NCBI RefSeq assembly: GCF_032062105.1
Contig: NW_026935415.1
Location: 1 to 64,000 of the forward strand
Origin: Saccostrea cucullata
Lineage: Eukaryota
Reading direction: 5' to 3'
DNA: 64,000 nt
Below, in pieces: positions 4,535 through 40,352 of the stretch. The translations under genes were made by a program, and so were the position numbers. Every line of letters starts with the position of its first letter. Positions within the stretch are counted from its first letter, which is position 1. The notes under the pieces are model-generated. The model saw only the letters and a program-made list of their open reading frames with translations. It had not been told where the DNA came from and ran no database searches.

Positions 4535-5276
4535 TTATCAATTGTATCGTGAAACAATCTCCTTCTGTAAAATTACAATTTGAATATGTATTTCAGCATT
4601 AGTTCATTTTTTGACAAAAGAAAAATGTTAAACGAAAATCACTTACGTTAAAAAATAGTCCAGTTGGCTGTGATTGCGACGTTTTTAATTATGTACGAAT
4701 GAAATAATTGTTTAAAATTTTTGTAAACAAAGATGATTTTAGTATGATTTAAAATACGTCTCTATAAAAGATGAATATATTGGGAAAAAAAAATGAATAA
4801 TGAATGCATAAGAATTTTATCATGCCTTTTGTCAGTCCATGATAGTTTTTTTATCACCTCTCGTACGTACAAATAAATTTTACTCAACAATTCATATTTC
4901 AATTGCCCCAGATATGCAAAAAAAAATCTTTAGAGACACAACTCTAGTATGATAGGACTTCACTTTTTATTTGAATTAGCAACACATCATGAGTAACGAA
5001 TTTTAGCAATCCTGAACTCTTTAATTTATATTTAAAAGATTGAAATTTTTGTTTTCAATATTTGCATTATTGAGGGATAGTTGTCTGTCTATTACCCCAG
5101 AGACACGGTGAAAATCCCAATTAATCAAGCAAAATCCGCAATTACTTCTGTAGCAAATCCGTATTAAGATGCATACACAGGATATAATATATCCGTGACA
5201 AACGTACGAAAGTGTTTGAAATACATTTAGTGCGGCAGAGTTAATTAGTCGTAGGCATAGCACACCAGTTTGAAAG

Positions 5277-5455
5277 ATGAATTGGAAACTGTTTACGTTG
5301 GTTTTCTGTGCTTTGTTATTTGAAACTGTAATTGGAGATTGTGACATGAGGTGTACCTGCAGAAATTCGACCATATGCTCTGGAACATTCGCTGATTGCT
5401 CGAAGCAATCATTAACAATGGTACCTTCTACTCATCCTAGCGACACATGTGTTTT
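5277..5455 (+). CDS. LRR gene exon 1: signal peptide + LRRNT cap
   Basis: MNWKLFTLVFCALLFETVIG (hydrophobic leader), then DCDMRCTC...ADCSKQSLTMVPSTHPSDTCVL (LRRNT C-x3-C-x-C...C-x4-L-x2-VP); phase-2 donor TT|GTAAG at 5456. Confidence 0.9.
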
Positions 5456-8400
5456 GTAAGTATTTAGGTATAAAGCATATCCCTAATTTGATGATTTTCA
5501 TCATGGTATAAATGCCTTTGTCCGCCTACTTTATTAATCATTATATTTTTACATTTAAACGTAATAATCCTTGAAGTTAGATATTGCAGCGATTTCATTA
5601 CTCTAAACTTTAATATCCAATAAATTGATTCTTTTAATGATAATCTAAAATTTCGAGACTGTAAGTTTTTTTTTAAAATATTCTTTGGACATCAATCCTC
5701 CAAAGTAATTATATTTCATTCATTCATTTTTAATGACTCTTTGCAGTTTATAAAGCGTAAACGTCCCGAACCCATTTTATACAGTGTACATTTTATGTAT
5801 TGACATTGTGAAGCTAAGAAAAATTATATACGTGATCATTGCATAATAATAAATTTTATTCTGACATTTGCTCCACGTTTTTTTCTAGACGTCTGAGCGA
5901 GAACATGATAACCAAAATTGAGAACACCACACTTAATGGTTTGACAAACTTAGGAACATTGTAAGTTTTTTTCCTGACAGTTTCTTACTACTAATATGCT
6001 TTGGAGTATTAATTTTAATTACAAACAGTATAATAGAAGTTACTCACTAGATTTATTTAAAATATATAAAGAGGATGTTTAATGAATCTATCAAGGATTG
6101 CATGGATGAGTTAATGTGAAATACGTAATTCATATTGACGGAGAAATAAGTTGAGCCTTAATATAATGAAATCCTTATTTTATCCATTATTCATTGACGC
6201 TTCGTAGATTATAAAGCGTAAAATGCCCAAACTAAGTTTATATTCCGCCTATTAAATAATCTTTAGTCTTAAAATATATATTTGATGAGGTTGTTTTTAA
6301 TGATATCCTCTTTGAATCCATTGTTCATCGATGCTTCGCATCTTATAAAGAGTAAACTGTCCAAACCCAGTTTATATTGTAGCTATTAAATTTAGTCTTA
6401 AAATAGACATTGATGGTATTGAGATCGAGGCTAGAAAGAATAATTTATGTAATAATTGTCTTTTTAATTTTTTTACTTTCTCCTTAAAAATGCATTCGAA
6501 AAAAAGATTCATTTTGAAAAAAAAATGATTTTGGCATTCATTTTTTTTACATTTCTTTTTCAGAGAGTTGTACGATAACAAGATAACCGAAATAGAAGAC
6601 AGTGCATTCATTGATTTGGCAAATTTGGGACTTTTGTAGGTTTTTTTCTAATAGTTTTAAACAACAGATATATTTCTTAGAGTATCAACCCACCAAAGTA
6701 TAATACACTTTGATTTGATAAAACAATTTCAAGAGCAATAGTATCGTCTCTTGAATTTTTATTCGTGAAGAATAAACAAAGTAACCTAAATTTCGACGTT
6801 AATTTTTCACAATTTATTTCCAGATTTTTGAACGGAAACAAAATAACCACCATAACGAAGAGCACATTTGTGGGTTTGTCAAATCTAACACTTTTGTAAG
6901 TCTTTTTCCTTATAGTTCCTAACTACAGATATGTTCAATCTAATTAAAATCAGACTTCCTAGATCCGCGCCGTATTCACTCTGCGCAGAGTGAATACGGC
7001 GAAAATCTAGGAAGTCTGATTTTAATAAGATTGCAGATATGTTTTGGAATATCAACCCGATAATGTAAAATAAACTCTGTTTTTATTCAACAATTTCAAG
7101 AATTATGGTCTCCTAGATTATTTTACATTCAAATTGAGCCCTTAACCTTAAAAATCTGAATGTTTATAACGAAGTGTATGATAGAAATATATGTAACTCA
7201 CTAGATTAATTTGTAATATGTGACTATTATGTACGACTTATATTGAATTAAAGGAATAAGTTAATGTGTAATTCAGATTCATGTACCGTGTTGATGGAGG
7301 AAGAATTTGAACGTTTATATACAGTTCAACAGGGTTATACCGAAGTCAATCGGACAAACTAAATTACTTCGCTCTATCGTTAATTCATTATATCTGTATA
7401 AGGAATTCGTTTAATTTATGTAGCTGGGTATTCAAAATAACTTCATTCTTTCCTTGAATTCGCAATATCCGTCTTCGTACTAAACGGGTTTTACTGTAAT
7501 AAGATTGATAATTCTTGGGGTTGGCATAGTGAGGCTAGATCTATGCCTTCTTATCAAAATTATTGTTTAAAGAAAAGGGTAAAGTTATCATGATTTTTTG
7601 GGTGATATATACTAGCACTTGTATAAGTGACCATTCTTAATTCACTCTTAACTTTTTTTCCTTTAAGGTATGTGTATGAAAACAGCATCTCCACAATAGA
7701 GGATAACGCGTTCAATGATTTGACAAAATTAGAGAAACTGTAAGTTCTTTATTCAAAATATTTTTGGGATGTAAATCCTCTAAACTCATGACACTTCGCA
7801 GTTTATAAAGCGTAAACAACCCAAACTCAGTTTTAACGTGTAAATTTCAAGTTGTTGCATTGTGAAGCTAGTTGGAATTATTCACTTGTTAATTGACTTT
7901 TAAAGGCATTTATTTTTTAAAATTGAAGAAACTATAATTATGCATGAAAATGCTCTTGCTCTTGGCTTTCACTTTTCTCATTTTTTCCAGATATCTGTAC
8001 GAGAACATGATATCCAAAATTGGGAATAACACACTCACTGGTTTGACGAACTTAACAGAACTGTAAGTTGCTCTTGATTAATTCCTAAGGTTTTGGAGTA
8101 TTAATCAACCAAAGTATTATATACTATGTTTTTATTCTATAATTTCAATAACGATAGCATCGTCTTTTGGATTTTTTTCTCAACTTTTTATATTGCTCTG
8201 AACCTTTAGAACAAAGTATGATAGAAGTAGCTTACTTGATTTATTTGAAATGTATATGTGACGAATATGTATATTGAAATACTAGTATTTAAAGATTAAA
8301 AGGATAAATACGGGACGAGTAATTCAGATTTACGGATAAAAATGAGGTTGTTTATGTTAATATAGATCTAGTAAATGAAAGGTGCCTACAAAAATATCAA

Positions 8401-11400
8401 ATTTAAGAAATAAATTCCTTTATTGATGCTTTATAACTTTAGCTTGGTCAAATATAGTGTTTCGGGGCATAATTTGTAGGTAATCAAGATGAAAAATCAT
8501 ATTTTAATCTGTCGTTTCCAATAAAAAATTAAGAAAAATCGGTCATGAGTATGAGTTTTTTTTCAATATCAGAAAACGAAAATGTTTTCAGATTGTCTAC
8601 GGTCTATCAGAAAATTTGAATTTGTATTTTCCAGGCCTGTCTTTAAAATAGTGTCAAATTTAATATAGGTATCGGGACTATTTTTCATGTGATTCAAATT
8701 AAATTCTTTGAAAATACTTCATTTTCTACATAATTCTTTTAGAGTGATAAAGTACGGAAAAATGAAAGTTAAAAGTGATTACGACGTCATAATGCATCTA
8801 GCACCAAAAACTTAGTTAAAAGATATTTATTAGGTCTTCACCTTAAGGCCAGTAAGAATAAACCATGACCTAAATGTTTTTTTAAACAATTATAATTGTC
8901 TAAAAGGTAAAATGAGTGTGCCGGTAACTTGCACTTGAATGTATCCTCCTCACAATGTCTTTCAGGCTCATGCGCAGCAACAACATTACAACAATAGAGG
9001 ATAACGCTTTTAAAGATTTGACAAAATTGAGGAAACTGTAAGTTTGTAATTTAAAATATTTTTATAATACCAATCCACCAAACTATAATATCCAAATCAT
9101 GACACCCTTACTAATGTTATCGTGGTTTAAATTCAAGACACGTGGTTTAGGTTGACCTATTCAAAGGTTATAGGATAGAACCGGTTTTATAAATAAAACT
9201 GGCAGTAAACAGGAAATTGCTATAGTCTGTTTCTTTTGAAATCATGTCCTGTGAAAAAATTGTTTCAAGACGTTTCTGAAAATGATTTTCAACAGAAAAG
9301 GGTAGCTAGAGGGGGAGGGGATTAAAATAATAATATATCATCATTATTTATTGCGAAAATTAGAGCTCACTAGCGACCGATACGCTGGTAAAAAAAAATG
9401 TGTAATATCATCTGCACTGACAATTCTTTGTTTGCCTTATATGGCTATTGTTATTAATGCGCATGGACGATCTACCAATTGCAGATATGTTTTGGAATAT
9501 CAACCCGATAATGTAAAATAAACTCTATTTTTATTCAACAATTTCAGGAATTATGGTCTCCTAGATTATTTTACATTCAAATTGAGCCCTTAACCACAAG
9601 CAACTGACCAATCGTTGAATGAATAGCAACGTTTACCCCCAAGATATGTTTACATTTTACTTTTAATATATGTATCGAGAACCTCTTTCTCGTGGATTAT
9701 AATTGAACCTGTATTATTTAAACACACACATGTGAATAAGTTATGGTTGTGAAGAACGGAAAACTAAGTTTTAAGCTATCATGTCTTCACAATGAAATTA
9801 ACTATGAAAAAACACTCTAAGCTCATTAACATCTTGGCAATAAATATGTAAGTACAGGCACTTCACGTCCTTTCTTTCAATTTTTCTTTCAGAGATCTGG
9901 GTAAAAACGATATTACCACAATAAGTGATATGACATTTAGTGGTTTGACAAATTTACAAGACTTGTAAGTATCTGAGATTAGAAAGACTTTTAAAAAATA
10001 AGTTATAGTATATGAGGAGTGAAAAAAAATAATACACAAAAATTATATTACTCATGCATTTTTCTTTAATATTTAAAAAAGGAATACATCCCTAATGATT
10101 TAAAGCAATATGAGCTGCATGTTTAACATCGGAAAATTTTATAGCAAATTTGTAATTAACTAATTTAATGAAAGAAAAATAAAACATTTATAAACTTCTG
10201 TTGTTCAGATTTGCAATGGAAATTTTTTTATTAGCTTTGATTGAAGCAAAATTGAATTATTGTCGTCTTGTACAATAATGATTTCTTATTTAATACTGTA
10301 TATTCGGTCGTACAAAAATATTTCTTTTGAAACATTTTAAAACTTTATTTTGGGCTTATTGGTCATAAGGGTTTAAATTACATACAAATTAAGTATAATA
10401 GCACATTTTCCTAGCAAAATAAAATTCTCAAAGATACAGCTCAAATTGCTTTAAGAATTAACCCAATTCATATTGTTCATGTTTATAATGCTTTTATATT
10501 TTGTTTCATCACTTTCATTGATTTCTCGTAATTTTATGCTACATTTTAACTCTACTTCTTACCTGATTTTCTACTAACTATTCTAGCACCATTTTAAAAT
10601 TAATGAAACATAATACAAACAAAATTTGATACATTAATTTATATACATATACATTTCTTGGGTGATTTGGAATGGAAATAACACAAAATAAAAGAACCTC
10701 GAATATAAAGAAATCGTATTTTTTGGAGGGTTAGATATAACACTTTGTGTAGTTAAACATATACACAAGTTTGCAAATGATTTTGACATTGTGGCAAAAT
10801 GTATTAAAATTCTTCTAGTGTATCTGTAAAATATCATTAATGATTTTTATCAATAAGAAAAAGACAAATTATTACTAGATTTGGGTACATACATTTTATT
10901 TCTTATTACGAGGGTTGATCCAAAAGTAATGTCACAACTTTGATAAAATTGCTATTAATTGACGTAAAGCAACAAAATTATACACGATGGAAGCTTTATT
11001 TATTTCAAATCTGTCCTGATAAAAATCAAAGGAATATCAGGTATACTTTCTAAAATATCGGATTTTAAACAATGTGCGTTTATGGTAGTCGCCGCACCTA
11101 AATATAACGTCATATGACTGATACGCACCGTCAAACTTTTAAGCGTTTCCCCATTGTTTCATTAAAAAAATATTTGTGATTCGCAAACACTTTCACCAGT
11201 TCCATTTTTTAAAAGAGTTCTTTGTACCATTATACACTCACTCGTTTCATGATTAAGCCCTCTGTCAAAATTTTTTTACAGTAGCAAAGACAAACTTTGA
11301 AATACACATATGCATGTCACTCTATACATCTGTCTTTATTGACGTCAGACACCTTTGAACGTTTCCGTCCGATCTCCTATCTTTCGGTCTTTTTGTCCTC

Positions 11401-14400
11401 CGCTGATCATTCGGTGGCCAATCACCCGCCCAAAATTGCTGAAGCCATCTATTAAGATGTCTCTTATTGCGATTCTTTATTCTCTAAGTCTGATAAAATA
11501 ATGTTATTTCGCTTGTGATGAATCCCATATTTTGAAGCAACAAATGCATTACCGGTACAACTCGTCGAACCGGTTTTTTTTTTCCATTTCGACAGTCCTT
11601 TTGTTAAATTCAACAGAGTAAAACAACAATGTTTATGATCACAAATACCAATGTTGTCATTTAATTTTCAATTAAATACTAGAAAATGACGAGAACTGTG
11701 TCTTTACAAAAAATTGGAAGATTAAGTGCTTTTTTAGAATCTTTTTAGAGTGTTTGTCTTTTTCATTCTGAAAAATATTACACTTTAAAACGTGACGTTC
11801 CGTTGTGACGCGGCGACACCCCCTATACTCTATGTTTTAAACATCTATAAATTAAATAAAATAAACATTATTAAATTAAAATTTCAAGGTTGATTTGATT
11901 TATATCTGTGCATCTTTTGGTATGTTCTTTTTGATAATATGACGCCAAATATAACAGATATGGACACTGTGACATTACTTTTGGATCAACCCTCATATTT
12001 AGGATAATGTAAATAAATTTTTGCTTCACTTTGGGACAGTCTAACTTGCCCACTCACCCTCTTCTTCAATATTTTTTTCTGTATAATCATGCATACAACA
12101 AATATTTGAAATATTTTACACTTTACTTATGGCGCATTGTCCATCTGCCATCAAAAAATCTTTTAAAGATATGTCTTGCATTTATACATATGCTATTTTT
12201 TTTAATTGAAAAAGTTTGAAAATATTACACTCCAACTATTTTTGCAGTCGCATTGAAATACTATGCATATAATTTTTTGTTGTCCTGTATCATCAAGCTA
12301 TTTACGTTGATATGGAAGTTTCCTGCTTACATCAATTCCCCATTTTCAAAAGTGAGTTATCTCCCCTCAAAATCGGAACTCTTCTACACTAGCATAACTT
12401 CCGCGGACTACGCATTACAATAATCCAACAAAATAGTGATCAACTTACACGCTGCATTTAAAAATTTTAAAAGAAAGAAACGGTTTGCAATTTTTTTTAG
12501 ATAATAAGCGATTGTATAAAGGGTCTGTTACCCACCCACCCCCTTTCTAGACAGCTATACGAATTAGCCAGGCACGTAGCATCGTCTTTAAAAGGGGGGG
12601 GTGGCAGCCAAAGAAATATTTTTTTCTTACCTAGAAAAGTAGACAAGCAAAGAAAAACCTTGCCCAAAGTCGAAAAAGCTACTTATTTCAGTACCAGTTC
12701 CTTGGCATACAATACTTATTTCCCCTTATATAACTTTACCGTAGTATAAACTGTGTGTGTGGCAAGGGGGGGTGGCAACATGTCTTTTAACGAACATTTT
12801 CAATAGAAAAAGTAATATTGGGGAAAAAGTGGGGGTGGGGCTAGGCCCCTTGACCCCCCCCCACCCCCCACCCCCACCCCCCCGTTGCTACTTGCCTGTT
12901 AGCTGGCAAACAACTTCATCAGAAATTTGCAATTTTAATGTACGTTATTGTAATTTTTTCTTAAAATCTTACATGTATAATCTACAGGATACATCTTATT
13001 TATGTTTTTAAAAAGATAATTTACAAAGTACACGTAAGTTTTTAATAAGCGGTGTGGTGAAACCGGGAAGATGAATTTCGCTGGATGTCAGTTGAGTGTG
13101 TTACACACTTGAACTCAGAACTGACCATTAGAATGTTTCAAATCAACTTTCATGCGAATTTGATTGACACTGAGGTGACGCACGAGGGTTTTGAGCGTAC
13201 AGGTACAGAGAACGAATTTGTAAATGGATTGGACAGTTGAATATGAACCAAAGTTGTGGAAATTAAAAATTATTAGAATAAAACTAAAAATTCTTATATT
13301 TGATCTGCACATTTTGTAAATAATGATGATCCGTATGCAGAACATCCACTACCGAAAATTAGCTTTTGTTTTGTATTTTTTTTTAAAATAGGCCTATTCG
13401 AATATGTATCAGCATTTTATCAGTAATTTGTTTCGTTTTTTTTTGTAAGGGGGGGGGGGGGGGCTTACACAGTGCCTTATTATAATTCTATACAGATTAA
13501 TACAAATCCAGAAAGAGACAATGAGTGGGCAATTTAAAAAAATACGAATCAGTTAAGATTTCTTTTTATTCACAAACACAATAACATTTTTCCATATGAC
13601 AGAGGCATTACACCATGAACATGTTTACATCAAGAACGTCCGCGGAAGTGACTTTATTTATAGCGCATGCGTATTAAACACAGTAAAAGAGTTCCTTTCA
13701 GGGGAAATAACTCACCTTTTGAAAATGGGGAATATTTTTCAATTCAGTATTTTTCTTAATTCGATTTATTTTTATCAACTGAATCCATCATACATAAAAG
13801 ATGCTTTTAATTACATTTATGGGAGAATACCATGATACAATACAAAACAAAATGAAAATAAGCAGTCAAACCAGATTGATATATGTTAATCAGACAATAA
13901 GTATGGACTTAGAAATAAGGTGAGGCTGTATATATTGAGATTAAATATACTGAGTACCTCTGGTAGCATTGTGAGGGTAGTAAAATTATTCACCTGATTT
14001 ACATGCACTTTACATTTACTCTTATTTTATAGGTATCTATACGACAACAGCATTCAGACAATAGAGGTCAATGCTTTCAGGGATTTGACAAATTTGTGGA
14101 ATTTGTGAGTTTATTATATTATATATATTTTGGATTACATGTATGTCAATTGTACAAAATTCAATATCACATCTATGGATTCATTCACGAAGTAAAAAAA
14201 ATTATAGAGACTATAAGTTCGTTAATTGAAATATATTTTGGAAAAATCAAACCTACTAAATGTAATTGATTCAATCACGAATTAAGGTAGGTCGCGGGTT
14301 TACTGAATAAAAATTCCTACGAGAAAACATATTTTGAAAATTCGATATACTAGTAGTGTTCCTAAGATTTAGTCCTATTTTTACGCTTTACTATTGAATT

Positions 14401-17400
14401 ATATAGAAAAATGACTTTTCAAGCTAATTTTGCGAAAAGAGTTTCTATAAAAAAAGCTTGGATAACTTTAAAAAGACCTAGACAAATTAGTCGATGATTT
14501 AAAAAAGTCAAGATGTGGTAAGACTTAAACTATTGAGATAAAAAAAAAACAATTTGTCTTATCGCTAGTTTCTTTTTCAAAAAAATTTCAGTTTGTTTTA
14601 CCATTGCCAAAATTGTGCATTTATGAATGACTAGAACGTCATAAATTGAACGTAATCTCGTTAACATTATACAGCGACAACGCCGCGAATGATAAATATT
14701 AAATTTTATGATGTTAATGTTTAATAAGATTTCAAGCATAACACATGAGTTTGACCACTTCATATATCTGAAAAAAGGGGGGGGGTCTATATAAGTGGCG
14801 CCAACTCTCGAACATTTGTTACTTTCTTTAGTAAAAATTCCATAAGCAAAATGTAAAACACTTGTACTTAGCTCTATACACAGATTGCTTTTGTTATATA
14901 AGGGAAAATGAACTTGTTACTCGTAAATTACATGTATCTGTTTACAGTGCCATAAGGTCTGGTAGTCCGGGTGTCTGTACATGTATACATTTTTAAAAAT
15001 GATTTCACAATATGATAGCCTGCTTATACATATAGCACCACATGAGATTCAAATACAAAATAAACAAAAAAAAAATAATAATTATGAGAAAAAGAAAAAA
15101 GAAAAAATAATAATAGAAAAAAAAACGTACTTAAATTTCACCCGTTTTAAGTAATGAGGATTGATCCAATCCTGTAAGTATTTTATATAAAATAATATTT
15201 TCGTCGCGGATTTGATTGGCCAATAAAGTTTAATATGCACGTTTCCTTTGGGTTGCAAATTATATGCGCACATAAGAACCTTCAAAATTTTGGCTTAGCA
15301 ATCAACGAAAACTTTCTTCTTGCATACTGTAACTTTTTCTTTTTGCATACCATAACTTTTACGTCAATTCATTTGAATTGACTTTAAACAGTTAAGTAAC
15401 ACTTACTATATAAATTATTCCTTTTATTTGGTACGTTTTTTTTTGTTCTAAGACATTGCACAAAAAAATCACAACGGAAGCATAAAGGCTTTCAGTTTGT
15501 ATCAATCTTTTAAAGAAAAAAAAATACCAGTAACTCTGCAATGTCTTTCGACAAAATTGCACTAGGTCTATAGTTTCAACTAGATGCTCGGTTCCGTAAG
15601 CCCTGACGAGCTCTCATGTGACGTCACAGTCTAGATGTCTCGTGCGACTTGGCGTTTGAAGTGGCGGATCAACGTTCCAGGTGTATATAGGAAGGTTCAA
15701 CTGCGCTCGCCCCAACGGTCACATCGTAAAACATAATTACCCTAGTTTAGTTCAAACATGCGCACGATGTTTACGTTAAATAGCATTTACTATGAATTAA
15801 TCCACTTGTTTCGTACAGACTATGTATAAAATTATATTCAGAGAATTAAATCAAAATTTAATTAAAATTAAAAGTGCACAAAACAACCGCTCGAATCATT
15901 GTAATTGTGTACTTTAAAAGTATTGCTTTCTTCATAAGGAATGAAGAAACTTTCATTCTGCGTAAAAAAAATTCAATAATTTTTCGCATTTTTTTTTTTT
16001 TTGCAGATTATTGTACCGAAACAACATAACTGCAATCAAAAACAACACATTCATTGGTTTGATGAACTTAAAGAAGTTGTAAGTTTTTTTCCCTAAGAAT
16101 TTCTGACAACAATATTAATTTTGAAAGTTTTAATCCACCAAAAAAAATGGTATGCTGTTCTCTGATTCAACAATTTTAAGTACAATAGCACCATGTCTCT
16201 TATAAGACATTTTAAGATTTTTTTTTACATACTCTAAAATCACATATTTTCGAAAAGTCAAGTTTTCGTGGTTTGAATAAAAACTCTTGGTTTGTGTGGA
16301 TTTGAATTTGTGGATGAAACAATTGTTGAGTAGTTATATAGGCAACATTTTACATTTCATGGTGGACATGAATTCGTGGGTTTCTTCATTACTCAAAAAC
16401 AACGAAAATTTAACCCCATGAAAATTTGTGATTTCACAGTACATATTAGCATTATTCTTTAACAACAAACAGTAGGTTCAAAATTACTCACTTAATGTGT
16501 AAAGCGTAATTCAGGTTGACGGAAAAATAAGTCGAGTTTGTATATTATAAGATTTGTGATGACATTGTGAGACTGGAAACAATTATTCACGTGATCCATT
16601 TTTTTTCTTTAAATAATTATGATTTTCTAGGACTGTGAGGTAAAACTATTAAGAATCATGACATACAGTAGCACTTGAATTTCACTCTGAACAATTTTCC
16701 CCAGGTATCTAGCCCGCAGCAGCATAACCACAATCGAGGCTGGCGCGTTCACTGATCTGTCAAAATTAGAGGAACTGTAAGTTTTTGGATAGAAGTTGAG
16801 GTTGCATAAAATCAGATTAAATCTAGCGAGGGTGGCCCTTGAGTTAAGGATAAGTTATAGTCTTTTTATTTGAATGTAGCTTTTCAAGATCGCACATACG
16901 TTAGTTATGTTTCCATGTCCTCGATGCTTTTCATTATTATAATTTTCTTAAAGAATTAGGTAAATTTATTATGATTTTTCTAGGATGACCTAAGTAAGAA
17001 CTTGAAATTCCTTCTTCATAATGTCTTTCAGGGATCTTTCCAGCAACACCATAACCACAATAGAGGATAAAGCGTTCAATGATCTTACAAAATTAAAGAA
17101 ATTGTAAGTTCTTTACTTAAAAATATGTTTGAAATGTCAATCCTCATAAACATACTTCCTTCAATAACAATACCTTGATTCATTCAACACTCAATAAGGG
17201 AGATTGTAATTTCAATTTTTAAATTGTTTTGGATAATATCAATTCTTTAAATTAAATTATCCCATGAATTGATATTTTCAATGATTTAAAAAATGCAACC
17301 ATTTTTTATATGCAAGTTTGTTTTTTTTTCAAAAATATCTTTGGAATATCAATCCTCTAAAAGGTTATATCCCATGTATTGATTTGACAAATTAATAGAG

Positions 17401-20400
17401 ACTGTTATTTTTAAAATAATGGGATATTAATCCTCGGAACTGTAGTATCCAATGCATTCATTCTGCATTGACGTTTTGCAATTTATAAAGAGTAGACTGT
17501 CACAAGCCAGTTTATACTCGTGTAAATTACATCTATTGGCATTGTAAAGCTTGTAGGAATTGTTCATTTGAAAACTTTTCACTGTATTTTTTATTAGGTA
17601 ATGAAAACTTTCAATTGCTTAAAAAAGAGGATTCTTTCAGTCATATTCTTAAGAACAGCACATTTGTTGGTTTGTCAAACTTAACGACATTGTAAGTTTT
17701 TTTTAAATAGTTCTTAACTACAGATATTTTTAGAGTATCATTATATCAAAGTATCAATACTGTATACGTATTAATTCAACAATTTCATCAACAATTGCAT
17801 TGTCTTGGGGATTTTTTTTTTACATGAATGTGGGTCCGAACCTTCCTAACCTTAATAGTTAGTGGAGCGAGAATAACAACAAACGTTCAACAAATTATAA
17901 AATTGCCTTGATTTAAGAGATATATTGCAGACAAATATTCAATAAACAATTCTTAATTGAATGAACAAACTCTGTCCTGGCATCGGGTTGATAATGCAAC
18001 ATATATCATGTGACGTCAGAGTCTAAACGCACCAAATGTCACCTGCAGTTCGACGAGTCCGATCTAAATCTAAAAAAAAAACAAAAAAACTGAATATGTA
18101 TCTGCGCTCACCCTAACAGTCGCACTATCAACATAATATAAAACAGTATGGTAGAAGTAACTTACCTGATTTTATTTGATGTTTTGTATAGCATAATGAA
18201 TTATTTAAGGATTCAAATAATACATTAATGTGGGATTCATACTGACAGAGAAATAAGTTGAGGTTGTAAAATTCAAATTTAATAAAGCAGGGATGACCCT
18301 TGAGAGCCTAGTCATGTTATTCACATCCTCGATGCTTTTTATAACTATAATTTTCTTAAAGAATGAGGTAAAGTTATTAAGATTTTTTAGATTGACATAA
18401 GCAATAACTTGTCATTCCCTCTTCACTATGTATTTCAGGGATCTTTCCAGCAACACCATAAGCACAATAGCGGACAATGCGTTCAATGACCTAACAAAAT
18501 TAGAGACATTGTGAGTTCTTAACTTAAACATATGTTTGAAATGTCTTCCTTATAACCTTTATTTATCCAATGCATTTATTCATCCAATGAATTGACAAAA
18601 TTAGAGAGATTTTAAGATCTTTAAATTTTTTTGATATATTGATCCACCAAACTGTGTAATCCGAAGTATTCAAATTTTGATTCTTTCCATGATTTGTAAA
18701 AAAAAAAAGAAGATGTAAGTTTGTTATTTATAAATATTTTAGGATATCAAATGAATAGTCTAAACTGTAATGCCTTATGCATTAATTCTTCATCGGAGTT
18801 CCGCAGTATAAAAAGCCTAAACGGCCCCTCCCCCCGGTGAACTCAGTTTATACCGTGTTAATTCTATGTACTGGTATGGTTTTACTTGTAGCAATTATTC
18901 AATTTATAATTGACTCTTTTAATGCATTTTTCATTAGAAATGAAAAATAATTTTGCGTGAAATAAATCTATGTGTGTCTTTTTTTCTACAATTTTTCCCA
19001 GATTGTTGGACAACAACAAAATAACCAGTATTACGAAAGGCGCATTTGTTGGTTTAACAAACCTAAAGGACTTGTAAGTTTTTTCTGATATTTTATTGCT
19101 ACAGACATTTTCTGGGGAATATAAGTTCAACAAATTATAAAATATTGTGTTTTGATTCAAAAATTTCAAGAAATATAGAATCGTCATTTTGTTGATTAAT
19201 GTTGACTCGAACCTTACTAACGGACAGCGTGATAGGAGTAACGTACTTGATTTATGAACAAAATATGGGACAAATATGTATATTGAATTATTTAAGGATT
19301 CAAATGATAAGTTAGTGTTGGATGCATAATTACGAATGAGGCAAAAATAAGATGAGATAGTATATTATAAGTTTAACATAACTGTGGTGGTTTTGTGAGG
19401 CTATTAAGAATTATCACGTAATATATGCTTTTTTTGCCCCTAGATCGAAAGATCCCGAAGGTATATTATTTTTGTCCTGTCTGTCTTTTTTTATTCTGTC
19501 TGTTTTCAACTTTAACCCAATCCATAACTATTGAGTAGGCGGGGCTATGACGTTCATATTTCACAGTTATATTTCTTGTGAAATGAACTTTCTTTAGGTA
19601 CCACCAAATTTGACTTCTTGACCTTTGAGTATAACCTACTTTTAACAAATATATACCACACTTTAAATTTGGCCATAACATTTTGAGCAGTAAGAGCCAA
19701 ATCCTTCAGCTGGAATACTTTTGACCATTTCACCTTGACCCACCTTTTATAAACTTTAACCTTGGTCATAACATTTGAACATTGTCAATAAGAACTAGGG
19801 CTTTAATATATCATAGGTGTATTCAAAAACTTATCTTTGGATATCAACATTTTTTGCTTTTCACATTGAACTTTGACGTTTGACATGCTTTCTGGAGAAT
19901 TAAAACCTTGCAGGAAGCTGCCAAAAGGGTATCATTAATGTTCACAAACAAATATGTTTATAATGGTAATTTTCTAAAGAGATAGTGTAAAATTAAAATA
20001 CCCACACTTTCTAAAGAAAGTTCGGGTATATTGTTGTTACTCGTGTCCGTCCGTCCGTCTGTCGCACTTTTTCCCTGAACTCCTCCTACACTTTACTCAG
20101 TAGGCTAATCATCTTTTGGGAGATGGTTGGTGGTGCTATTAAGATGTGCAGTAAGGTTTCGGAATGTTTGATTTTGCCCCGGGGTCAAATGGGAGTGTGA
20201 ATTTAAAGGCCTTAGTGTGGGTATTACAGTCTCATGACAGCATCCATTTATGATTGTTTGAGGGCGTGGTATATTTCTACCTAATTGATATTTACTCTTT
20301 ACATTTTTTCAGGATGGTTCTCAACAACAGCATTACGACAATAGAGGCTGGCGCATTCAATGATTTGAATAAATTAGAGATACTGTAAGTTAATTATTCA

Positions 20401-23400
20401 AAGAATTTGAATGTCTATCCTCATAACAATAATCTGAACAATGCATTAATTCATTTAATGAGAGAGACTGAAAGCTCGTTATTTTAAATATATATTGGCA
20501 TTGGGAAGCTTGTAGGAATCATTCACGTGATAATTGACATAGAACCGAATCTTCTTTTTAAAGAATGATGAAATATTTATTTTGCAATGACGCAAACTCA
20601 CTCTCTACATCTACTCTTTACATATTTTTTCCCAGAGATTTGAATGAGAACAAGTCTTTTTTTCTACATTTTTCCCCAGATTTTTGGACAACAACAAAAT
20701 AACCAGTATTAGGAAAGGCGCATTTGTTGGTTTGACAAACGCTAAGGACTTGTAAGTTTTTTCTGATGTTTTATAGCTACCATTGACGTTTGACATGCAT
20801 TTGGGGGAAATCAGCCCTCGTAGTAAGCGAGTTTTTGAGGGTGTGATATATATGTACTTAATTGATATTAACTCTTTACAATTTTTTTCAGGATAGTTAA
20901 CAAAAACAGCATTACGACAATAGAGGCTGGCGCATTCAATAATATGACTAAATTAGAGCAACTGTACGTTGTTTATTTAAAAAAAATTGGCATTTCTATC
21001 CTCATAACAATAATTTGAACAATGCATATCTTCATTTAACGATTAAAAAAAAGTCTTGTCCTTGACTCTCACTCTTTACAATTTTTTCCCAGATATTTGA
21101 ATGAGAACGAGATTACAACGATACAGGACAACGCATTTGTTGGTTTGACAGGCTTAAAAGAACTGTACGTTTTTTTCTAATAGTTCCTTACTACAGATAT
21201 TTCTGGAATATCAGTCTAATTTTGATGTACTGTGCTTCGATTCAATAATTTCAAGAACGATAACATCTTCTTTTTGATTTTTGTACATCAATGTTAGCCG
21301 GTAATTAAATCGCAAACAGCTTGATAGAAGTAACCCATTTGATAAATTTGATGTACATTGTAATATCTAAGATAGGTTGCGGATTTACTGCGTAAAAAAT
21401 ATAAAGCATGTTCTTAAAATTTGACTTCATGTTCCTGAGTATTTACAGCAAAGCAAGATAAACATAAAAAGATTGGGATGAAAAAAAAATCAAAATATCC
21501 TTTTTGAGTTTTCTTGCTACATGTGTATAATTTCAAAGTTTGCTTTTATATTGTCAAACGTTCAAGGCGTTTTTAATGAGTACATCGTCATGTACAATGT
21601 CATCGGGTTTACATGTATATATTCATGTTTGAAATATGCAGGATGAAAAGCTGACATAGGCTCACTCTGTAATATTATTAATCACTTATATATTGCAGAA
21701 TTGTGCTTGTATGTTTGCTGTATGTTGTTAAACGTCCCTTTCGATATTTTTGCTCTCATTTGGAGTCGATGTCACTTGCCATCGACGCTTATAATGTCCT
21801 ATACTCGGCACTTACAGCGATTGAGCATTGAGGGATCTTTTTACTGTTCGTATTTACTGTGTTACCGGACCTCGGTTTATACGGTATCATTCTAAGAATC
21901 AGTCTCCACGTCACACAGTGAGATTCGAACCTGCAACGTAACGATTACCACCTTGCGAATATTTGATACCAATTATTTTACATGTAGTCTCTAGGAAAAC
22001 GATAAAATAAAGTGTGCTTAAGAGGGCTGGGGGCTCGCGGCCATTTTTAGACTTTATTGATCTCTTTTAGAAGAAGAGCTCTATACAAATATGGTCAGAT
22101 TTTAAAACTAAAATTTGAATTTTTTTTCCTTTGCCAAATGATTGTTGAAAACTTAACTTCAAAAAAATGATTTACATGAATATAGGTATTAGGATCCTTT
22201 TCACAATACATGTAATTCAAAACTGAATGATGATCATACTTTATCTCTAGAGTCATGTGATTTAGTTATAGTTGTGAAGAACGTGGAAATCAGTTTAAAG
22301 ACAGATCATACAAACAAATACATTGATTCCTCTAATGATTTGGCAGAATGAGAGAGACTGTTAGCTCATTATTAAAAATATTTTTTGATATCAATCATCT
22401 AAAGTAAAATATTCTATTTTTGAATCATTCTATGACGCTCCGCAGTTTTAACTTTCCCATCCTTGTTTATACAGAATAATCCCATATATTGGCATTGGAA
22501 AGCTAGTAGCTAGGAATTATTCACGTGATAATTGACAAAGAACCGTATTCTCTTTTTAAAGAATGAAAAAAAAATAATTTTTGAGGGACAAAAAATCTAT
22601 TTAGACATTTACTCTGTACACATTTTTTTTTCAGACATTTGAATGAGAACAAGATTACAGCAATACAGGACAACACATTTGCTGGTTTGACAGGCTTAAT
22701 GGGGTTGTAAGTTTTTTTCTAATAGTTCCTTACTACAGATATTTACCAATCCAATGTTGATGTACTGTATTTCTATTCAATAATTTTAATAACGATAGCA
22801 TCTTCTTTTGGATTTTTGTATATCACTGTTGCCCTGAAATCAAATTGCAAACAGCTTAATACAAGTAACCCATTTGATAAATTTGAAATACCGTATATAC
22901 TCGCCTATAAGTCGGTTTTTTGGGAGTTAATCTCTGGTCTAAAACTCTTTGTCCGACTTAAAGGCGAGCAAATAAAAGTATGGTTTAATATGAGGTCAGC
23001 CCATCTCATATACAAGCTTATTAAATACGACCGACTTATATGCAGACCGACTTATAGGCGAGTATATAAGGTAGGTAACGAGGATGAACATTAAAATATT
23101 TAAGATGGAGTGCGTATTTTCTGCTTTAATACAGTATAATCTCAAATATTGGCATTGTGGAGCTTCTAAGAATTATTCACATGATAATTATCAAAGAAAC
23201 GTATTTTCTTTTTAAAGAATTAAAAAATATTTATTTTGCTGAAACAAAAACTCGCTCTCTACATTTACTCTTTACACATTTTTTTTTCAGATATTTGAAT
23301 GGTAACAAGATTACAGCAATACAGAACAATACACTTGCTGGTTTGACAGGCTTGAGGACATTGTAAGTTCTTTCTAAAAGTTTCTAACTACAGTTGTATT

Positions 23401-26400
23401 TGAAGCACCAAAGTATGATATAGATATACTGTGTTTCGATTCAATAATTTCAATAACGATAACATCTTCTTGTGGATTTTTACTCCTCATTGTTGGCCCG
23501 AACTTTAATGACAAACAGCTTGATAGAAGTTTGATTTATTTGAAATAGGTGACGAGTATGCACATTTAAATATTGAAGATAGGTTGTGGTTTAAGAACCC
23601 TCTCTACACTGCACACTAAAGAGTTCTGATTCTTATGTATTTTTCTGCAGTTAGAGTGATCTGCCCTTAGATCTAAATTTAAAAAAAAAATTTACAGTAC
23701 AATACTCAATTTGTAATTAATTCAGCAAATCTTAACATTTTAAAAGGCCAAGAGAAATTAACTGAACATGTTATTTACATGTACTTTCTTAATTGAAGTA
23801 ATTAACATTGATTTCTAGTCACTGATACTGGGTTGTCTTTGAGCTTTTTTCCCGGAGGCAAATGCCACGCATCATATAGTGAAAATTAGATAAATACGCA
23901 AAATATTAACTCCTTTATACAATATATTTTTCTCAATGTCCAAAAAGAATATTTACACTTGTGTAGAGAGGGTCCTTAACTGCATAGAAAATCTGAAGCA
24001 TATTATGAAAATTTGACTTCATGTTCCTTAGTATTTACAGCATATCATAATTTTTGTCAAGTTTGCATACGTTGTATTAATGTTATGTTACCGTAAACGC
24101 AGCATAGCTTTGGGTATAACTTTCAACCGGTGTTTGCTTGCCACATTTTGGTTTTTGTATATACTAGCTTGAAATATATCAAGTCTTAATAAACAACAAT
24201 TTCAACATATACATGTGTTTTAAGTTATAGTATTCTAGGTTACTGTTCATTTAATTTTTGCTGGAAAGAGGAAGCATAAATATCATTTATGACAGTAAAT
24301 AATTTTATTGACGAATGATTTAATATAGCAAGTTGTGTTCATTTTGTGTTATGTTCAACATATATATTGTTTATGTAGTAAATTAGCTGTAACTGTAAAC
24401 CTTATAAGAGCCTATGCAATTTTTCCCCACTGGGAGCCTCAGGTTCAATGCTGCAATCTGATTGGTCGAGAGTTAGCGTCGCTTTATACAGTTTGTAAGA
24501 CAGTAGACATTTTTGTGAGGAGGCTGAGAAAAATTTTTAAACCCTCCCACCTCTCCCATTTTTATACAAAAGAAATTGAGCCATGAGCCTTTGGACCTCA
24601 CCTTCTGCCACTTACAATGATTTTTCTAGTCATGTATGTTTGCATACAAGTATTTTGGAATATTGTAATTTTGATGTATTATACCACTTATTGTGTTTGC
24701 AATGGTTATAGTTACAAAACTTCTAATATACAGGTTTTAAGTCTAGACTTGTACATTTTGCTAATGCCTGTAAATTGTAATTGCTCAACCGGTGTTTGCT
24801 TGCCACATTTTGGTTTTTGTATATACTAGCTTGAAATATATCAAGTCTTAATAAACAACAATTTCAACATATACATGTGTTTTAAGTTATAGTATTCTAG
24901 GTTACTGTTCATTTAATTTTTGCTGGAAAGAGGAAGCATAAAACTCCTTTATACAATATATTTTTCTCAATGTCCAAAAAGAATATTTACACTTGTGTAG
25001 AGAGGGTTTAACGGCATAAAAATTCTAAGGCATATTCTGAAAATTTGACTTCATGTTCGTTAGTATTTACAGCATATCATATGTACTGTAATTTTGTCAA
25101 GTTTGCATACGTTGTATTAATGTTATGTTACTGTGTAAACGCAGCATAGTTTTGGGTATAACTTTTACGCTTTACTTTTGAAATAAATGGGTAAATAGCG
25201 CTTTAAAACCAATTTCACCGAAAGAGTCTCTTTAAAAAAAAGTTTTCACAATACATGTTATTCAAATTGGACGTTTATCATACTTTATTTCTACATTCAT
25301 GTAAATAAATTATAGCGGTGAAGAACGGGGAAATAAGTTTAAGGACAATTTTTTCTTCGGAGGAGACCTTAATATCAGTTCACAGGTTTAGAAAGTGGAT
25401 GTTTCTTGGAATTTTCTCTCCTTGGAAAATGAAATAGACTTGGCAAATATTAGTTAATACTTCGATAAAATAACTATTATACACTCAACCAATCATCAAC
25501 AAAATAACAAATATGGATAAACTACACTCAGTAAAGGTTTACAGATGAAAACAGATTTCAGGGATTATTATGTTAGCTTGGTGCTAAAAATTAAATATAA
25601 AATTAAGAAAAATATACCAAGCCAGGTAAATTTTATGAAGAAAAACAAAATGAAAAGTTTTCTAAAGTTTATATTACACATTAAACACCAAGCTAACATA
25701 TTCTAAAATTTGTTTTTCATCTGTAAACGTCTACTGAGTGCGATTTGTCCATATTTGTAATTTATTTAAGGAATGTTTTTTTACGTTGTGTGTGAATTAT
25801 TGGTGTCTGAACCACACAGACTTATCACGTAGGCATATTGGCGCGCTTCATGAGAAATATGCTTTCTTGCATGTCTCTGTGATTCACACACAAATAATTC
25901 ACACAAAACTTTAGAAAAAAATCTTATATATACATTTTACACCTAAATATACTCAATATTTGAGTTTTTCTCTGGCCTATATCGTTGCATTTTTACTAAC
26001 ATTGTTGTTGCCTCATTGTGACGTCACGTTAGCGCTAGTTTCTCTGTGTATATTTCTTTGTGCGAGTATACACAAAAATGAAATTCAAATCAATTTCACT
26101 GTTGGCTTAGTTGAAAAGCACAGCGAATATAAATATTAATGTATAGGCTAATATTTTCCAAGTCTATTTCATTTTCCAAGTTCCAAGAAGAAATTATAAG
26201 AATTATAAAAAAAATGTTTGTATCATCATAATCATCTGTCTTTAAACGTCCATTCTTTAATTTTTATTTCAGGTATCTGAACAACAACAATATAGTACAA
26301 TTGGAAGCAACACTGTAAATAGTTGGACATCTTTATATAAATTGTAAGTAATTGAGAATAGAATAACGCATAAAAATATTTTAAAGAATACGAGGAAACA

Positions 26401-29400: not shown

Positions 29401-29932
29401 CAATTGTCAATAAAACAGGCATTGGTTGCTGTAAATGTTACATATTCCAGTGAATATTTCTTTGGGATTTTTTTTACAAGTTTTACAGCAGCTTTAATGA
29501 AGCTTTTATTTTCACTTTAGTTTACTGATTCTTTACCATACATTATAATGCAGTGTCTTGAATAACCCTTGTTTTTCATCTTCTCATTTTGAAACTATGT
29601 GATGAACAGTGGTCACATAAACTGTTTTAAATTCATTAAAGATTCAATAATGAGAGAAAGTCAAATCTTAATGCCATATGATATCTGTTTTTTATGTCAT
29701 ACAGTTCAGGACATTATCTATTGAACAGCCCTCGTATATCGCACTTTTGGGTCTTACATTTATGACAATTTCAATTAATTTGTTTGTGGAAAGTTTTATA
29801 TAAAAAAAAGAAATTGTATTTTTGAATTCCGATACATATTTTCATTATTTTTATCAAGGCGAATACATGATAACCCTTTACATTGCGATTGCGAGTTGCT
29901 GAGCCTAGTCGATTTCATCAAATCTGGACGTA

Positions 29933-29973
<41 letters not shown>

Positions 29974-30193
29974 AAAACTTTCAACCAAACACATTTGTTC
30001 ATTTCTCGAAGAACAGAAAACACAATGCTCTACTCCTGCAAAATTAACTGGAACTCAACTGGCCAGTCTGTCAGCTTCAGCCCTGGGATGTCCCGAAAAG
30101 GAAACCAATAGTTCACCTTTAGGAGGAGGAAACATATTAGTTGTTACACTCTTGTCTTTATGTTTGCTTGTTAAAACCATCGTTGAGTTTTAG
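5277..30193 (+). CDS. Multi-exon extracellular LRR protein: signal peptide, LRRNT, 19-21 x 24-aa LRR, LRRCT, stalk, probable GPI signal; this allele has two frameshifting lesions near the 3' end
   Basis: Exon 1 is 5277-5455. Intact 72-nt AG..GT phase-2 LRR exons: 5889-5960, 6564-6635, 6824-6895, 7668-7739, 7991-8062, 8966-9037, 9893-9964, 14033-14104, 16007-16078, 16705-16776, 17032-17103, 18439-18510, 19002-19073, 20313-20384, 20680-20751, 20892-20963, 21093-21164, 22635-22706, 23291-23362. Each translates to xLxxNxIxxIxxxxFxxLxxLxxL (e.g. YLYDNSIQTIEVNAFRDLTNLWNL). Also a 51-nt exon (17641-17691), a 71-nt frameshifted exon (26273-26343) and the LRRCT exon from 29859. Confidence 0.9.
6936..7033. 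mobile_element. 98-bp foldback MITE with 10-bp TSD (Mutator-like)
   Basis: Near-perfect palindrome centred on CACTCTGC|GCAGAGTG; exact TSD CAGATATGTT at 6926-6935 and 7034-7043. Confidence 0.8.
7322..7497. mobile_element. Degraded TA-flanked MITE (Tc1/mariner-like)
   Basis: TACAGT...ACTGTA ends with imperfect inverted repeats. Confidence 0.4.
10909..11995. mobile_element. Non-autonomous mariner-like element
   Basis: 28-bp TIR CGAGGGTTGATCCAAAAGTAATGTCACA / TGTGACATTACTTTTGGATCAACCCTCA with TA on both sides. Confidence 0.85.
16230..16441. mobile_element. Degraded TA-flanked MITE
   Basis: Imperfect TIRs TACTCTAAAATCACA / TGTGATTTCACAGTA; internal TTTCGTGG subrepeats. Confidence 0.45.
17641..17691 (+). 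CDS. Shortened 51-nt, frame-preserving LRR exon
   Basis: TTCTTTCAG acceptor; encodes HILKNSTFVGLSNLTTL; TT|GTAAG donor. Only the 3' part matches the other LRR exons. Confidence 0.5.
19430..20247 (+). mobile_element. Two adjacent Helentron/HINE-like non-autonomous elements
   Basis: 5' subterminal palindromes followed by (GTCY)n microsatellites and TGACCTT motifs. The 3' end GTGTGGGTATTACAGTCTCATGACAGCATC has an inverse copy at ~63888-63920. Confidence 0.55.
21715..21950 (-). mobile_element. tRNA-derived SINE (degraded)
   Basis: Reverse B-box GATTCGAACC at ~21922; body similar to 33740-33920 and 53380-53670. Confidence 0.6.
23595..23975. mobile_element. TTAA-flanked MITE (Kolobok-like)
   Basis: TTAA-GAACCCTCTCTACAC ... 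GTGTAGAGAGGGTCC-TTAA. Confidence 0.7.
23908..25165. repeat. Nested local direct duplication X-Y-Z-Y'-X'
   Basis: Y 24123-24280 matches Y' 24785-24942 (identical by eye); X 23908-24123 resembles X' 24942-25165 (diverged). Confidence 0.8.
25421..26180. mobile_element. TIR element containing a foldback (~25508-25758) and a decayed 160-bp Crypton-type hairpin element (25767-26145)
   Basis: TIR CTTGGAAAATGAAATAGACTTGG(C)AAATATTAG with its inverse at 26148-26180; imperfect palindrome TAAGGAAT...TCTTA at 25767-25926. Confidence 0.6.
26273..26343 (+). pseudogene. Frameshifted (71-nt) last LRR exon
   Basis: Good acceptor and donor but 1 nt short. Reads YLNNNNIVQLEATL* (TAA 26316-26318); restoring one A gives YLNNNNISTIGSNTVNSWTSLYKL. 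Confidence 0.75.
26803..29734. mobile_element. Decayed mariner-like element carrying a nested HINE
   Basis: TA-CGAGGGCTGTTCAATAGATAA ... TTATCTATTGAACAGCCCTCG-TA. Confidence 0.85.
27382..28977 (+). mobile_element. Helentron-associated non-autonomous element (HINE) with ~160-bp satellite-like tandem array
   Basis: 5' palindrome AGGTCACCTGAG-TTA-CTCAGGTGACCT, (GTCGT/GTGT)n microsatellite, roughly 8 units starting AAATTGTGAATTT(C/T)ATGGCCCC, and 3' CAGGTGACC plus hairpin AGGCCC-GT-GGGCCT-CTTGTT. Confidence 0.85.
29859..30193 (+). CDS. LRR gene terminal exon: LRRCT + stalk + hydrophobic C-terminus, interrupted by a ~64-nt repeat-derived insertion
   Basis: Phase-2 acceptor AG at 29857-29858. Reads RIHDNPLHCDCELLSLVDFIKSGRI [29935-29998] SFLEEQKTQCSTPAKLTGTQLASLSASALGCPEKETNSSPLGGGNILVVTLLSLCLLVKTIVEF* (TAG 30191-30193), matching the LRRCT pattern NP-x2-CDC...C-x2-P-x2-L-x-G-x2-L...C. 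Confidence 0.85.
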
Positions 30194-39621: not shown

Positions 39622-40352
39622 TGGCATGTTACCTTCACCATATTCATGTTATGAGATAAGTTTTATTTCAATTTTAATTTTTGTAGTAATTATGCATTCA
39701 AGATACATGTACTTGAATTTTGAATATCGATGTCATACCAAAAAATATTATGGTGTATAGAGTGTAGAACATTTTACGATAGCTGCTAGTCATTTGATGC
39801 ACATGGCATCGTTTTAGTGATCTGTCACTATATATGCACTGTGATATGTCACAGTAGAAACGGCTTCTGCTCATTTTGATGCACATGGCATCTTGATGTT
39901 TGCGATATGTCGCTATGAGCTGTAATATGTACAGCTGAGCAGTTGCTTTTATGTTATGGCTAGCAGCTTATATGTGTGAAGTGTCGCTACACGCTGATGT
40001 ATGGTACACCTGAGAATTATGCTCAAGTGTAAATGATCTGGCGCTTTGGCTATTTCTTGATTATTTTCCTTGTGATCTGTCATTATAGCTTATGGTTGGC
40101 CTCAGTGAATTGACTGCTATCGAAACTTTTGCACTCTTAAGTATTTAGGTGTCCTTGGTTGTCTATGGCACCATAAGGCTTGGAAAAATTATTTCCATTA
40201 GAAGCTTAATTTGGCGATCAAGGGCATTTTTATACTTAAAATTTTTTCATGTTAATATGCAAAGTCAATTCAACATGTATATAGGCAGATAAGGTATTGA
40301 ACTATGAGTGTCTTCATTCTTAAGACAGGTGTCTCGTTTTGTAGGCCAAAAT

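Follow-up and report, generated by a model that had tools for sequence, protein, structure and literature searches.

We analysed a stretch of 64,000 nt from the oyster Saccostrea cucullata (contig NW_026935415.1, positions 1 to 64,000; hereafter the window), which carries a gene whose leucine-rich repeats (LRRs) are encoded by one 72-nt exon each. In these exons and in those of related genes the excess of amino-acid change at five codons next to the exon junctions is due to positive selection, at approximately three times the neutral rate. The gene belongs to an oyster multigene family of LRR-only proteins with a ratio of nonsynonymous to synonymous substitution rates (dN/dS, omega) of about 3 at these strand codons. 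The members are probably surface receptors, presumably held by a glycosylphosphatidylinositol (GPI) anchor, that bind fast-changing foreign molecules on their predicted concave face.

Selection on the strand codons

In the window gene an exon with signal peptide and LRRNT is followed by 19 intact LRR exons of 72 nt, then by a last LRR exon and by an exon with LRRCT and hydrophobic tail. The 19 exons, obtained from a scan for 72 nt bounded by AG and GT, lie between 5889 and 23362 and are in phase 2/2 throughout; the LRR part reads 515 amino acids without a stop. The codon split by the intron encodes Leu every time, and this Leu is the centre of the LRR beta-strand. The repeat order is L21 x22 x23 / L(split) x1 L2 x3 x4 N5 x6 I7, such that the variable codons flanking the exon junction are the x positions of LxxLxLxxN. 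In LRR proteins these positions form the ligand-binding face.

The initial annotation had noted that substitutions between sister exons concentrate on such codons. Its quoted codons and peptides proved exact at their coordinates. Between the exons at 5889 and 7991 the nucleotide differences per codon are 20200001001110110010022, i.e. two at codons 1, 3, 22 and 23 and at most one elsewhere, and the peptide SITTIEAGAFN is common to the exons at 20313 and 20892. For the exons at 21093, 22635 and 23291 the starts (YLNE, HLNE, YLNG) and ends (KE, MG, RT) were as described, but the middles, given as near-identical, are so except at codon 9, where 21093 differs from both others by 2 nt. The differences are not evenly spread: in five disjoint sister pairs within the window, picked by eye, 15 of the 26 amino-acid differences at 16 non-core codons fall on the five strand codons (8.1 expected, permutation p = 5e-4). 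The same concentration was found in 16 pairs collinear with a sister haplotype (39/84 versus 26.2 expected, p = 3e-4), where the pairing is fixed by collinearity and in one pair the last exon is taken from C4170.

For the dN/dS analysis the hand-picked pairs were replaced by pairs formed from intron-flank similarity alone (maximum-weight matching), which avoids choosing on the outcome. Redundant copies (11 of 114 exons) and exons without an intron partner scoring at least 200 (25/103, 20/46 and 8/22) were dropped, and in later sets a score of at least 760 excluded a pair as near-identical. The maximum-likelihood codon models fitted a single distance to each pair and a single omega to each site class, with the classes set in advance: strand x-codons (1, 3, 4, 22 and 23), core and other. 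Pairwise likelihoods were preferred to M7/M8 trees because 72-nt exons with conversion give unreliable trees.

The first set of 39 pairs from 103 exons provided an omega of 2.3–2.4 at strand x-codons, 0.12–0.15 in the core and 0.6 at other codons (p ~ 1e-7). Strand omega was 2.6–2.8 in the 22 of these pairs that come from other genes only, and 2.4–2.5 (p = 4e-4) in the 16 pairs of window and sister haplotype. Loci fetched after the classes had been fixed yielded 4.5 (13 pairs) and 3.7 (7 pairs). Pooling the window gene and its relatives (59 pairs) resulted in a dN/dS of 2.91 at strand x-codons, 0.24 in the core and 0.60 elsewhere (likelihood-ratio test statistic, LRT, 77; p = 2e-18). Per-site values for codons 1, 3, 4, 22 and 23 were 2.4, 3.7, 2.6, 2.5 and 3.5 (each p < 2e-5); no other codon in the 59 pairs was significantly above 1, with codon 6 at 1.4 (not significant). 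Diversifying selection, as had been proposed, is thus supported by this tree-free test, which adds codon 4 to the set and finds the signal family-wide.

These values are robust against several sources of bias. Multi-base mutation was rejected, as strand omega was 2.2 (p = 5e-6) with double- and triple-hit terms included; CpG decay was rejected, as it was 2.94 with CpG-touching codons removed. Distances fixed to the intron divergence gave 2.08. In 100 null simulations the maxima were an omega of 1.54 and an LRT of 14, compared to the observed 77. A one-event-per-codon count gave 87/195 versus 60 expected. The synonymous distance in the exons (0.161) is close to the intron divergence (0.173), so that homogenised exon middles were rejected as well. 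A mutation hotspot at the junctions was rejected because synonymous differences do not rise at strand x-codons (11/108, compared to 30/260 and 31/344 in the remaining classes). The interleaved L and N codons are conserved, and the alternation of fast with slow codons follows the in/out pattern of the strand and not splice-site distance. Across 171 exons, 16–18 different residues occur at each of the five positions. In the germline substitution spectrum no C/T excess was seen at the strand codons.

Protein architecture, gene family and the window copy

The first exon contains five invariant Cys and has no Pfam match. LRRCT was matched at the Pfam cut-off on the intact C2852 copy and LRR_8 weakly on one exon. 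Typical 24-residue LxxLxLxxNxL repeats with a predicted parallel beta-sheet and Cys-rich LRRNT and LRRCT caps place the protein in the typical (24-residue) class of extracellular LRR proteins. Its layout is LRR-only, free of TIR, Ig, kinase and 7TM domains: the stop directly follows the hydrophobic stretch in the C4170 and C2852 copies and in the RefSeq models P0154 and P0005. In 6/6 tails the best 19-residue segment had a hydropathy of 1.4–2.3 and ended 0–4 residues from the C-terminus, with no cytoplasmic part. A Toll-like receptor (TLR) or TLR fragment was rejected, since nothing follows the hydrophobic stretch, so that there is no transmembrane helix plus TIR domain; mussel TLRs are single-exon.

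As structure model we used the AlphaFold2 prediction of the RefSeq family member P0154, which stands for the family and not for the window protein (mean predicted local distance difference test score 69, mostly 85–96 over the LRRs). Mapping the sites placed the predicted strands, at 81–83, 105–107 and 129–131, on codon 23, the split Leu and codon 1, i.e. centred on the exon junction, with codons 22, 3 and 4 flanking them. The five codons are predicted to lie on or beside a parallel beta-sheet with the intron in mid-strand, and from established LRR geometry codons 22, 3 and 4 should face the concave side. The "recognition surface" of the initial annotation would follow from such structural knowledge of LRRs. 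The top Foldseek match was the amphioxus protein Bf66946, which resembles variable lymphocyte receptors (VLRs) (4xsq, E 1.6e-11, root-mean-square deviation 2.2), followed by Slit domains, lamprey VLRs (ranks 5, 7 and 25), LGI1 and the Nogo receptor.

Among 103 candidates scored, the oyster's own genome gave 82 matches to a first-exon protein, 27 of them with an identity of at least 60%; for a terminal exon there were at least 100 matches; the gene number is below the match count because the assembly is redundant. C6432 and C2852, which overlap at 99.1%, form the sister haplotype B, which is collinear with the window over ~34 kb, flanks included. B has 16 LRR exons versus 20 in the window, the difference being one duplicated exon pair and one triplicated exon; LRR number thus differs between haplotypes via tandem exon duplication. 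Haplotype A (that of the window), B and C20263 are either alleles or paralogues. The divergence between A and B (window 5–33735) is 7–11% upstream and in the first five LRR exons, 11–20% in the central LRR block and 9–12% downstream, and the central peak could reflect balancing selection or conversion.

Other members have at least ~3–8 detected LRR exons each, and several carry a Thr-rich stalk. Haplotype B and the genes on C18125 and C15633 are among the intact members. RefSeq proteins of the same species contain exactly the exons called here, joined in the models, under unrelated names (asporin-, biglycan-, opticin-, peroxidasin- and slit-like). A related subfamily (C7660 and C13520, P0157–P0163) has a Cys-rich domain after LRRCT in place of the hydrophobic tail. 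S. echinata and Ostrea edulis have more distant relatives; when homologues were searched for, the terminal exon as query gave no match and P0016 one other cluster. A literature search, whose coverage mostly excluded subscription journals and left out supplements, found no published description of the family; the gene tables of PMC4346834 might list such genes. The family appears to be undescribed, while its evolutionary pattern is already known from Ectocarpus and VLRs.

The extent 5889..23362 given in the initial annotation holds for the 19 exons but misses that the gene continues past 23362 and is damaged there (Table 1). The window copy is probably a broken allele, null or unanchored, because it has both a 71-nt exon and a 64-nt insertion and the copies on C4170 and C2852 have neither. 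The single-base deletion in the last LRR exon may have arisen as an error in assembly. The 64 nt are missing from contigs of two other DNA runs, and one of two RNA runs (X8) covers the terminal exon 2–6x, with three reads lacking the insertion. The terminal exon is a mosaic (29859–30180), its first 72 nt being 100% identical to haplotype B and its 3' part 100% identical to C4170. On C4170 the copy of LRR exon 19 is interrupted by an insertion of 7,063 nt (C4170:1180-8242) that has terminal inverted repeats of CACTA type and shows a 3-bp duplication of the target, and that we take to be a CACTA/EnSpm element; skipping of this exon would preserve the frame. The last intron of the window gene contains ~5 copies of a 160-nt satellite-like unit (27706–28476).

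Table 1. Features of the LRR gene in the window
Feature	Position	Strand	Remarks
Coding exon 1	5277..5455	+	signal peptide-like N-terminus (leader judged by eye from hydrophobicity) and Cys-rich LRRNT cap; ends in phase 2
LRR exon 1 (72 nt)	5889..5960	+	72-nt exon scan
LRR exon 2	6564..6635	+	72-nt exon scan
LRR exon 3	6824..6895	+	72-nt exon scan
LRR exon 4	7668..7739	+	72-nt exon scan
LRR exon 5	7991..8062	+	72-nt exon scan
LRR exon 6	8966..9037	+	72-nt exon scan
LRR exon 7	9893..9964	+	72-nt exon scan
LRR exon 8	14033..14104	+	72-nt exon scan
LRR exon 9	16007..16078	+	72-nt exon scan
LRR exon 10	16705..16776	+	72-nt exon scan
LRR exon 11	17032..17103	+	72-nt exon scan
Truncated LRR exon remnant, 51 nt	17641..17691	+	AG to GT; 3' two-thirds of a repeat, strand start gone; blastn match 17657-17679
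LRR exon 12	18439..18510	+	72-nt exon scan
LRR exon 13	19002..19073	+	72-nt exon scan
LRR exon 14	20313..20384	+	72-nt exon scan
LRR exon 15	20680..20751	+	exon-13-type duplicate; not in haplotype B
LRR exon 16	20892..20963	+	exon-14-type duplicate; not in haplotype B
LRR exon 17	21093..21164	+	one of three copies; haplotype B has one
LRR exon 18	22635..22706	+	72-nt exon scan
LRR exon 19	23291..23362	+	72-nt exon scan
Last LRR exon	26273..26343	+	71 nt, against 72 on C4170; frameshift, either real or due to assembly
Terminal exon	29859..30193	+	connecting strand, LRRCT, short stalk, 19-residue hydrophobic C-terminus without tail (GPI-signal-like)
High-copy-repeat fragment, 64 nt	29939..30002	+	inserted in terminal exon; shifts frame

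Elsewhere in the window, an open reading frame (ORF) with a C1q domain (534–941) lies just upstream of the LRR gene, inside the block common to haplotype B. An apparently intact element at 40308–43886 has gag-like, reverse transcriptase/RNase H and tyrosine-recombinase ORFs and split direct repeats of 100% identity (38616–38879/44819–45082 and 44596–44822/45229–45455); it is presumably of DIRS/Ngaro type. Cytochrome P450 exons lie at 47879–49845. On the minus strand are a tyrosine-recombinase/DUF3504 ORF (58282–59319), which we assume to be Crypton-like, and an F5/8 type C (F-type lectin-like) exon with leader (60840–61250).

Proposed role and alternative explanations

A receptor of this kind would be built from signal peptide, LRRNT, ~3–20 single-exon 24-residue LRRs, LRRCT, stalk and hydrophobic tail, and would be secreted and then GPI-anchored at the cell surface, an anchor that VLRB also has. 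The concave face would bind the ligand, with a microbe or parasite ligand as the putative selective agent. In-frame exon skipping, which is allowed because the exons are symmetric, may be a further source of variants. Since the intron bisects the binding strand, every skip, and likewise every duplication, would join the end of one exon to the start of a different one in a hybrid strand. Among more distant relatives, isoform models differ in length by exactly 24 or 48 amino acids: for a same-species member of the subfamily with the Cys-rich domain the RefSeq isoforms have 409, 385, 385, 361 and 361 amino acids, each without different whole repeats, and an S. echinata isoform pair differs by one repeat. 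The model P0154 uses 3/5 LRR exons of its gene (C18125:142370-153176), due to skipping or incomplete annotation.

To our knowledge oysters have no antibodies. They do show specific priming as well as strong heritable differences in disease resistance. For specific recognition, a large, mis-annotated family of VLR-shaped surface proteins under positive selection is a concrete candidate, in which five positions of each repeat are defined. It would represent a germline, exon-based counterpart of lamprey VLRs in a protostome. With broken alleles present, an association with resistance is directly testable.

Several observations weigh against a receptor family under such selection. Proteins other than immune receptors (Slit, the Nogo receptor and LGI1) also match the fold. 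The reading frame of the window copy ends at 530 amino acids with the 71-nt exon and at 599 without it, and the hydrophobic tail is lost both ways; because of this loss and of the 7-kb insertion in an LRR exon on C4170, parts of the family are decaying. The one-event-per-codon count, a crude measure, had z values of 4.4, 2.7 and 1.2 at 1x, 1.25x and 1.5x the intron distance, such that significance is kept at 1.25x and lost at 1.5x. The seven window-versus-C20263 pairs alone, a hand-picked set, had a strand dN/dS of 0.96, and codon 1 had an omega of 0.9 in seven distant pairs. The p-values are optimistic because pairs may share branches. The isoforms with skipped repeats come from annotation models, and from other subfamilies. 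RNA depth over 5100–24000 was below 1 in most exon-rich bins, swamped by intronic repeats, and no exon-exon joints were among the alignments listed for this region, where reads were too few to show splicing.

A more far-reaching version, which we consider doubtful, is that oysters independently built a VLR-like repertoire without DNA rearrangement, with dozens of surface LRR genes whose single-repeat exons are positively selected and skipped combinatorially, possibly per haemocyte. If true, a 20-exon gene could yield up to 190 joins between exons, a junctional diversity at the level of splicing.

It is unlikely that the same selection comes from another partner, i.e. from gamete recognition or self/non-self recognition between oysters as for oyster bindin. 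The bindin toolkit is alike: binding sites are under positive selection, introns recombine and splicing alters the repeat number (PMC5712786; here and below, papers are cited for the sections consulted), and display at the surface would fit gamete or allorecognition equally well. Bindins, however, come from few single-copy genes (PMC5712786), whereas the LRR family is large and has broken copies, as in immune families. Moreover, its nearest structural and functional analogues bind bacteria. We hold it for quite improbable that the proteins are housekeeping adhesion or signalling proteins on whose concave face a pathogen docks, with selection for escape and not for recognition. Escape from a pathogen yields the same dN/dS signature, and the fold matches include Slit2, the Nogo receptor and LGI1. 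A conserved host ligand would, however, hold part of the face constant, in contrast to the residue diversity at all five positions; in addition, LRR number varies widely and copies are lost. Very improbable, and largely refuted, is an absence of positive selection, with unconstrained strand residues and with gene conversion, junction-near mutation and multi-base changes inflating the ratio: recombination is visible in the mosaic terminal exon, short exons offer few synonymous sites and one seven-pair set has an omega of ~1, but omega is 2–4.5 whether calibrated on synonymous sites or on introns, also with multi-hit terms and after removal of CpG codons, there is no homogenisation of exon middles, junction codons show no excess of synonymous change and the alternation follows the strand.

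Comparison with known systems

The closest counterpart in fold, amphioxus Bf66946, is likewise a germline invertebrate LRR-only protein with the order signal peptide, LRRNT, LRRs, CP, LRRCT and hydrophobic region, and it binds Gram-positive bacteria via concave residues (PMC4731796). In the oyster genes, by contrast, each LRR has its own exon, the repeats number up to 20 and positive selection was measured; the main text of PMC4731796 never uses the word "exon", and the sections consulted contain no selection analysis. With lamprey and hagfish VLRs the family shares the domain order, 24-residue repeats, concave-sheet variability and, in several members, the Thr-rich stalk (PMC3900441, PMC13428168), such that both the VLR architecture and fold and a hypervariable concave face are found in it. 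VLRs are assembled somatically from cassettes in a deaminase-dependent, conversion-like process (PMC3900441, PMC13428168), whereas the oyster germline has complete genes with introns, in multiple copies. A true VLR was rejected, as each LRR lies in a spliceable exon located between the first and the terminal exon and RefSeq models join these exons. The long variable LRRCT insert of VLRs was absent from the oyster members compared.

Crab VLR2, with ten splice isoforms of different bacterial binding (PMC10045472), and the scallop proteins CfLRRop1-6, invertebrate pattern receptors that bind bacteria (reviewed in PMC5877582), are by description LRR-only pattern receptors, like the putative receptors of the oyster family. 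Crab VLR2 differs in being a single gene with a transmembrane form (PMC10045472). Neither family-wide selection nor a one-exon-per-repeat layout appears in the sections consulted of these two papers.

In its evolution the family resembles the ROCO LRR-GTPases of the brown alga Ectocarpus, which have a 72-nt exon per LRR, exon duplication, positively selected concave sites, pseudogenes and inactivated exons (PMC3341825). The Ectocarpus system consists of GTPases with intronic and reversed LRR exons, whereas the oyster proteins are predicted to be extracellular and have no signalling domain; in the oyster stretches scanned, no intact 72-nt LRR exon lies in reverse orientation. In NLRP3 and Slit of vertebrates the exon border is also fixed within the beta-sheet and in-frame skipping is possible (PMC6642158). 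On this comparison the position of the junction in the strand can be regarded as a general trait of exon-modular LRR genes that is not special to the oyster family. The family would thus function as a germline analogue of VLRs, while its evolution resembles that of the ROCO LRR exons of Ectocarpus, and it fits the loose LRR-only class.

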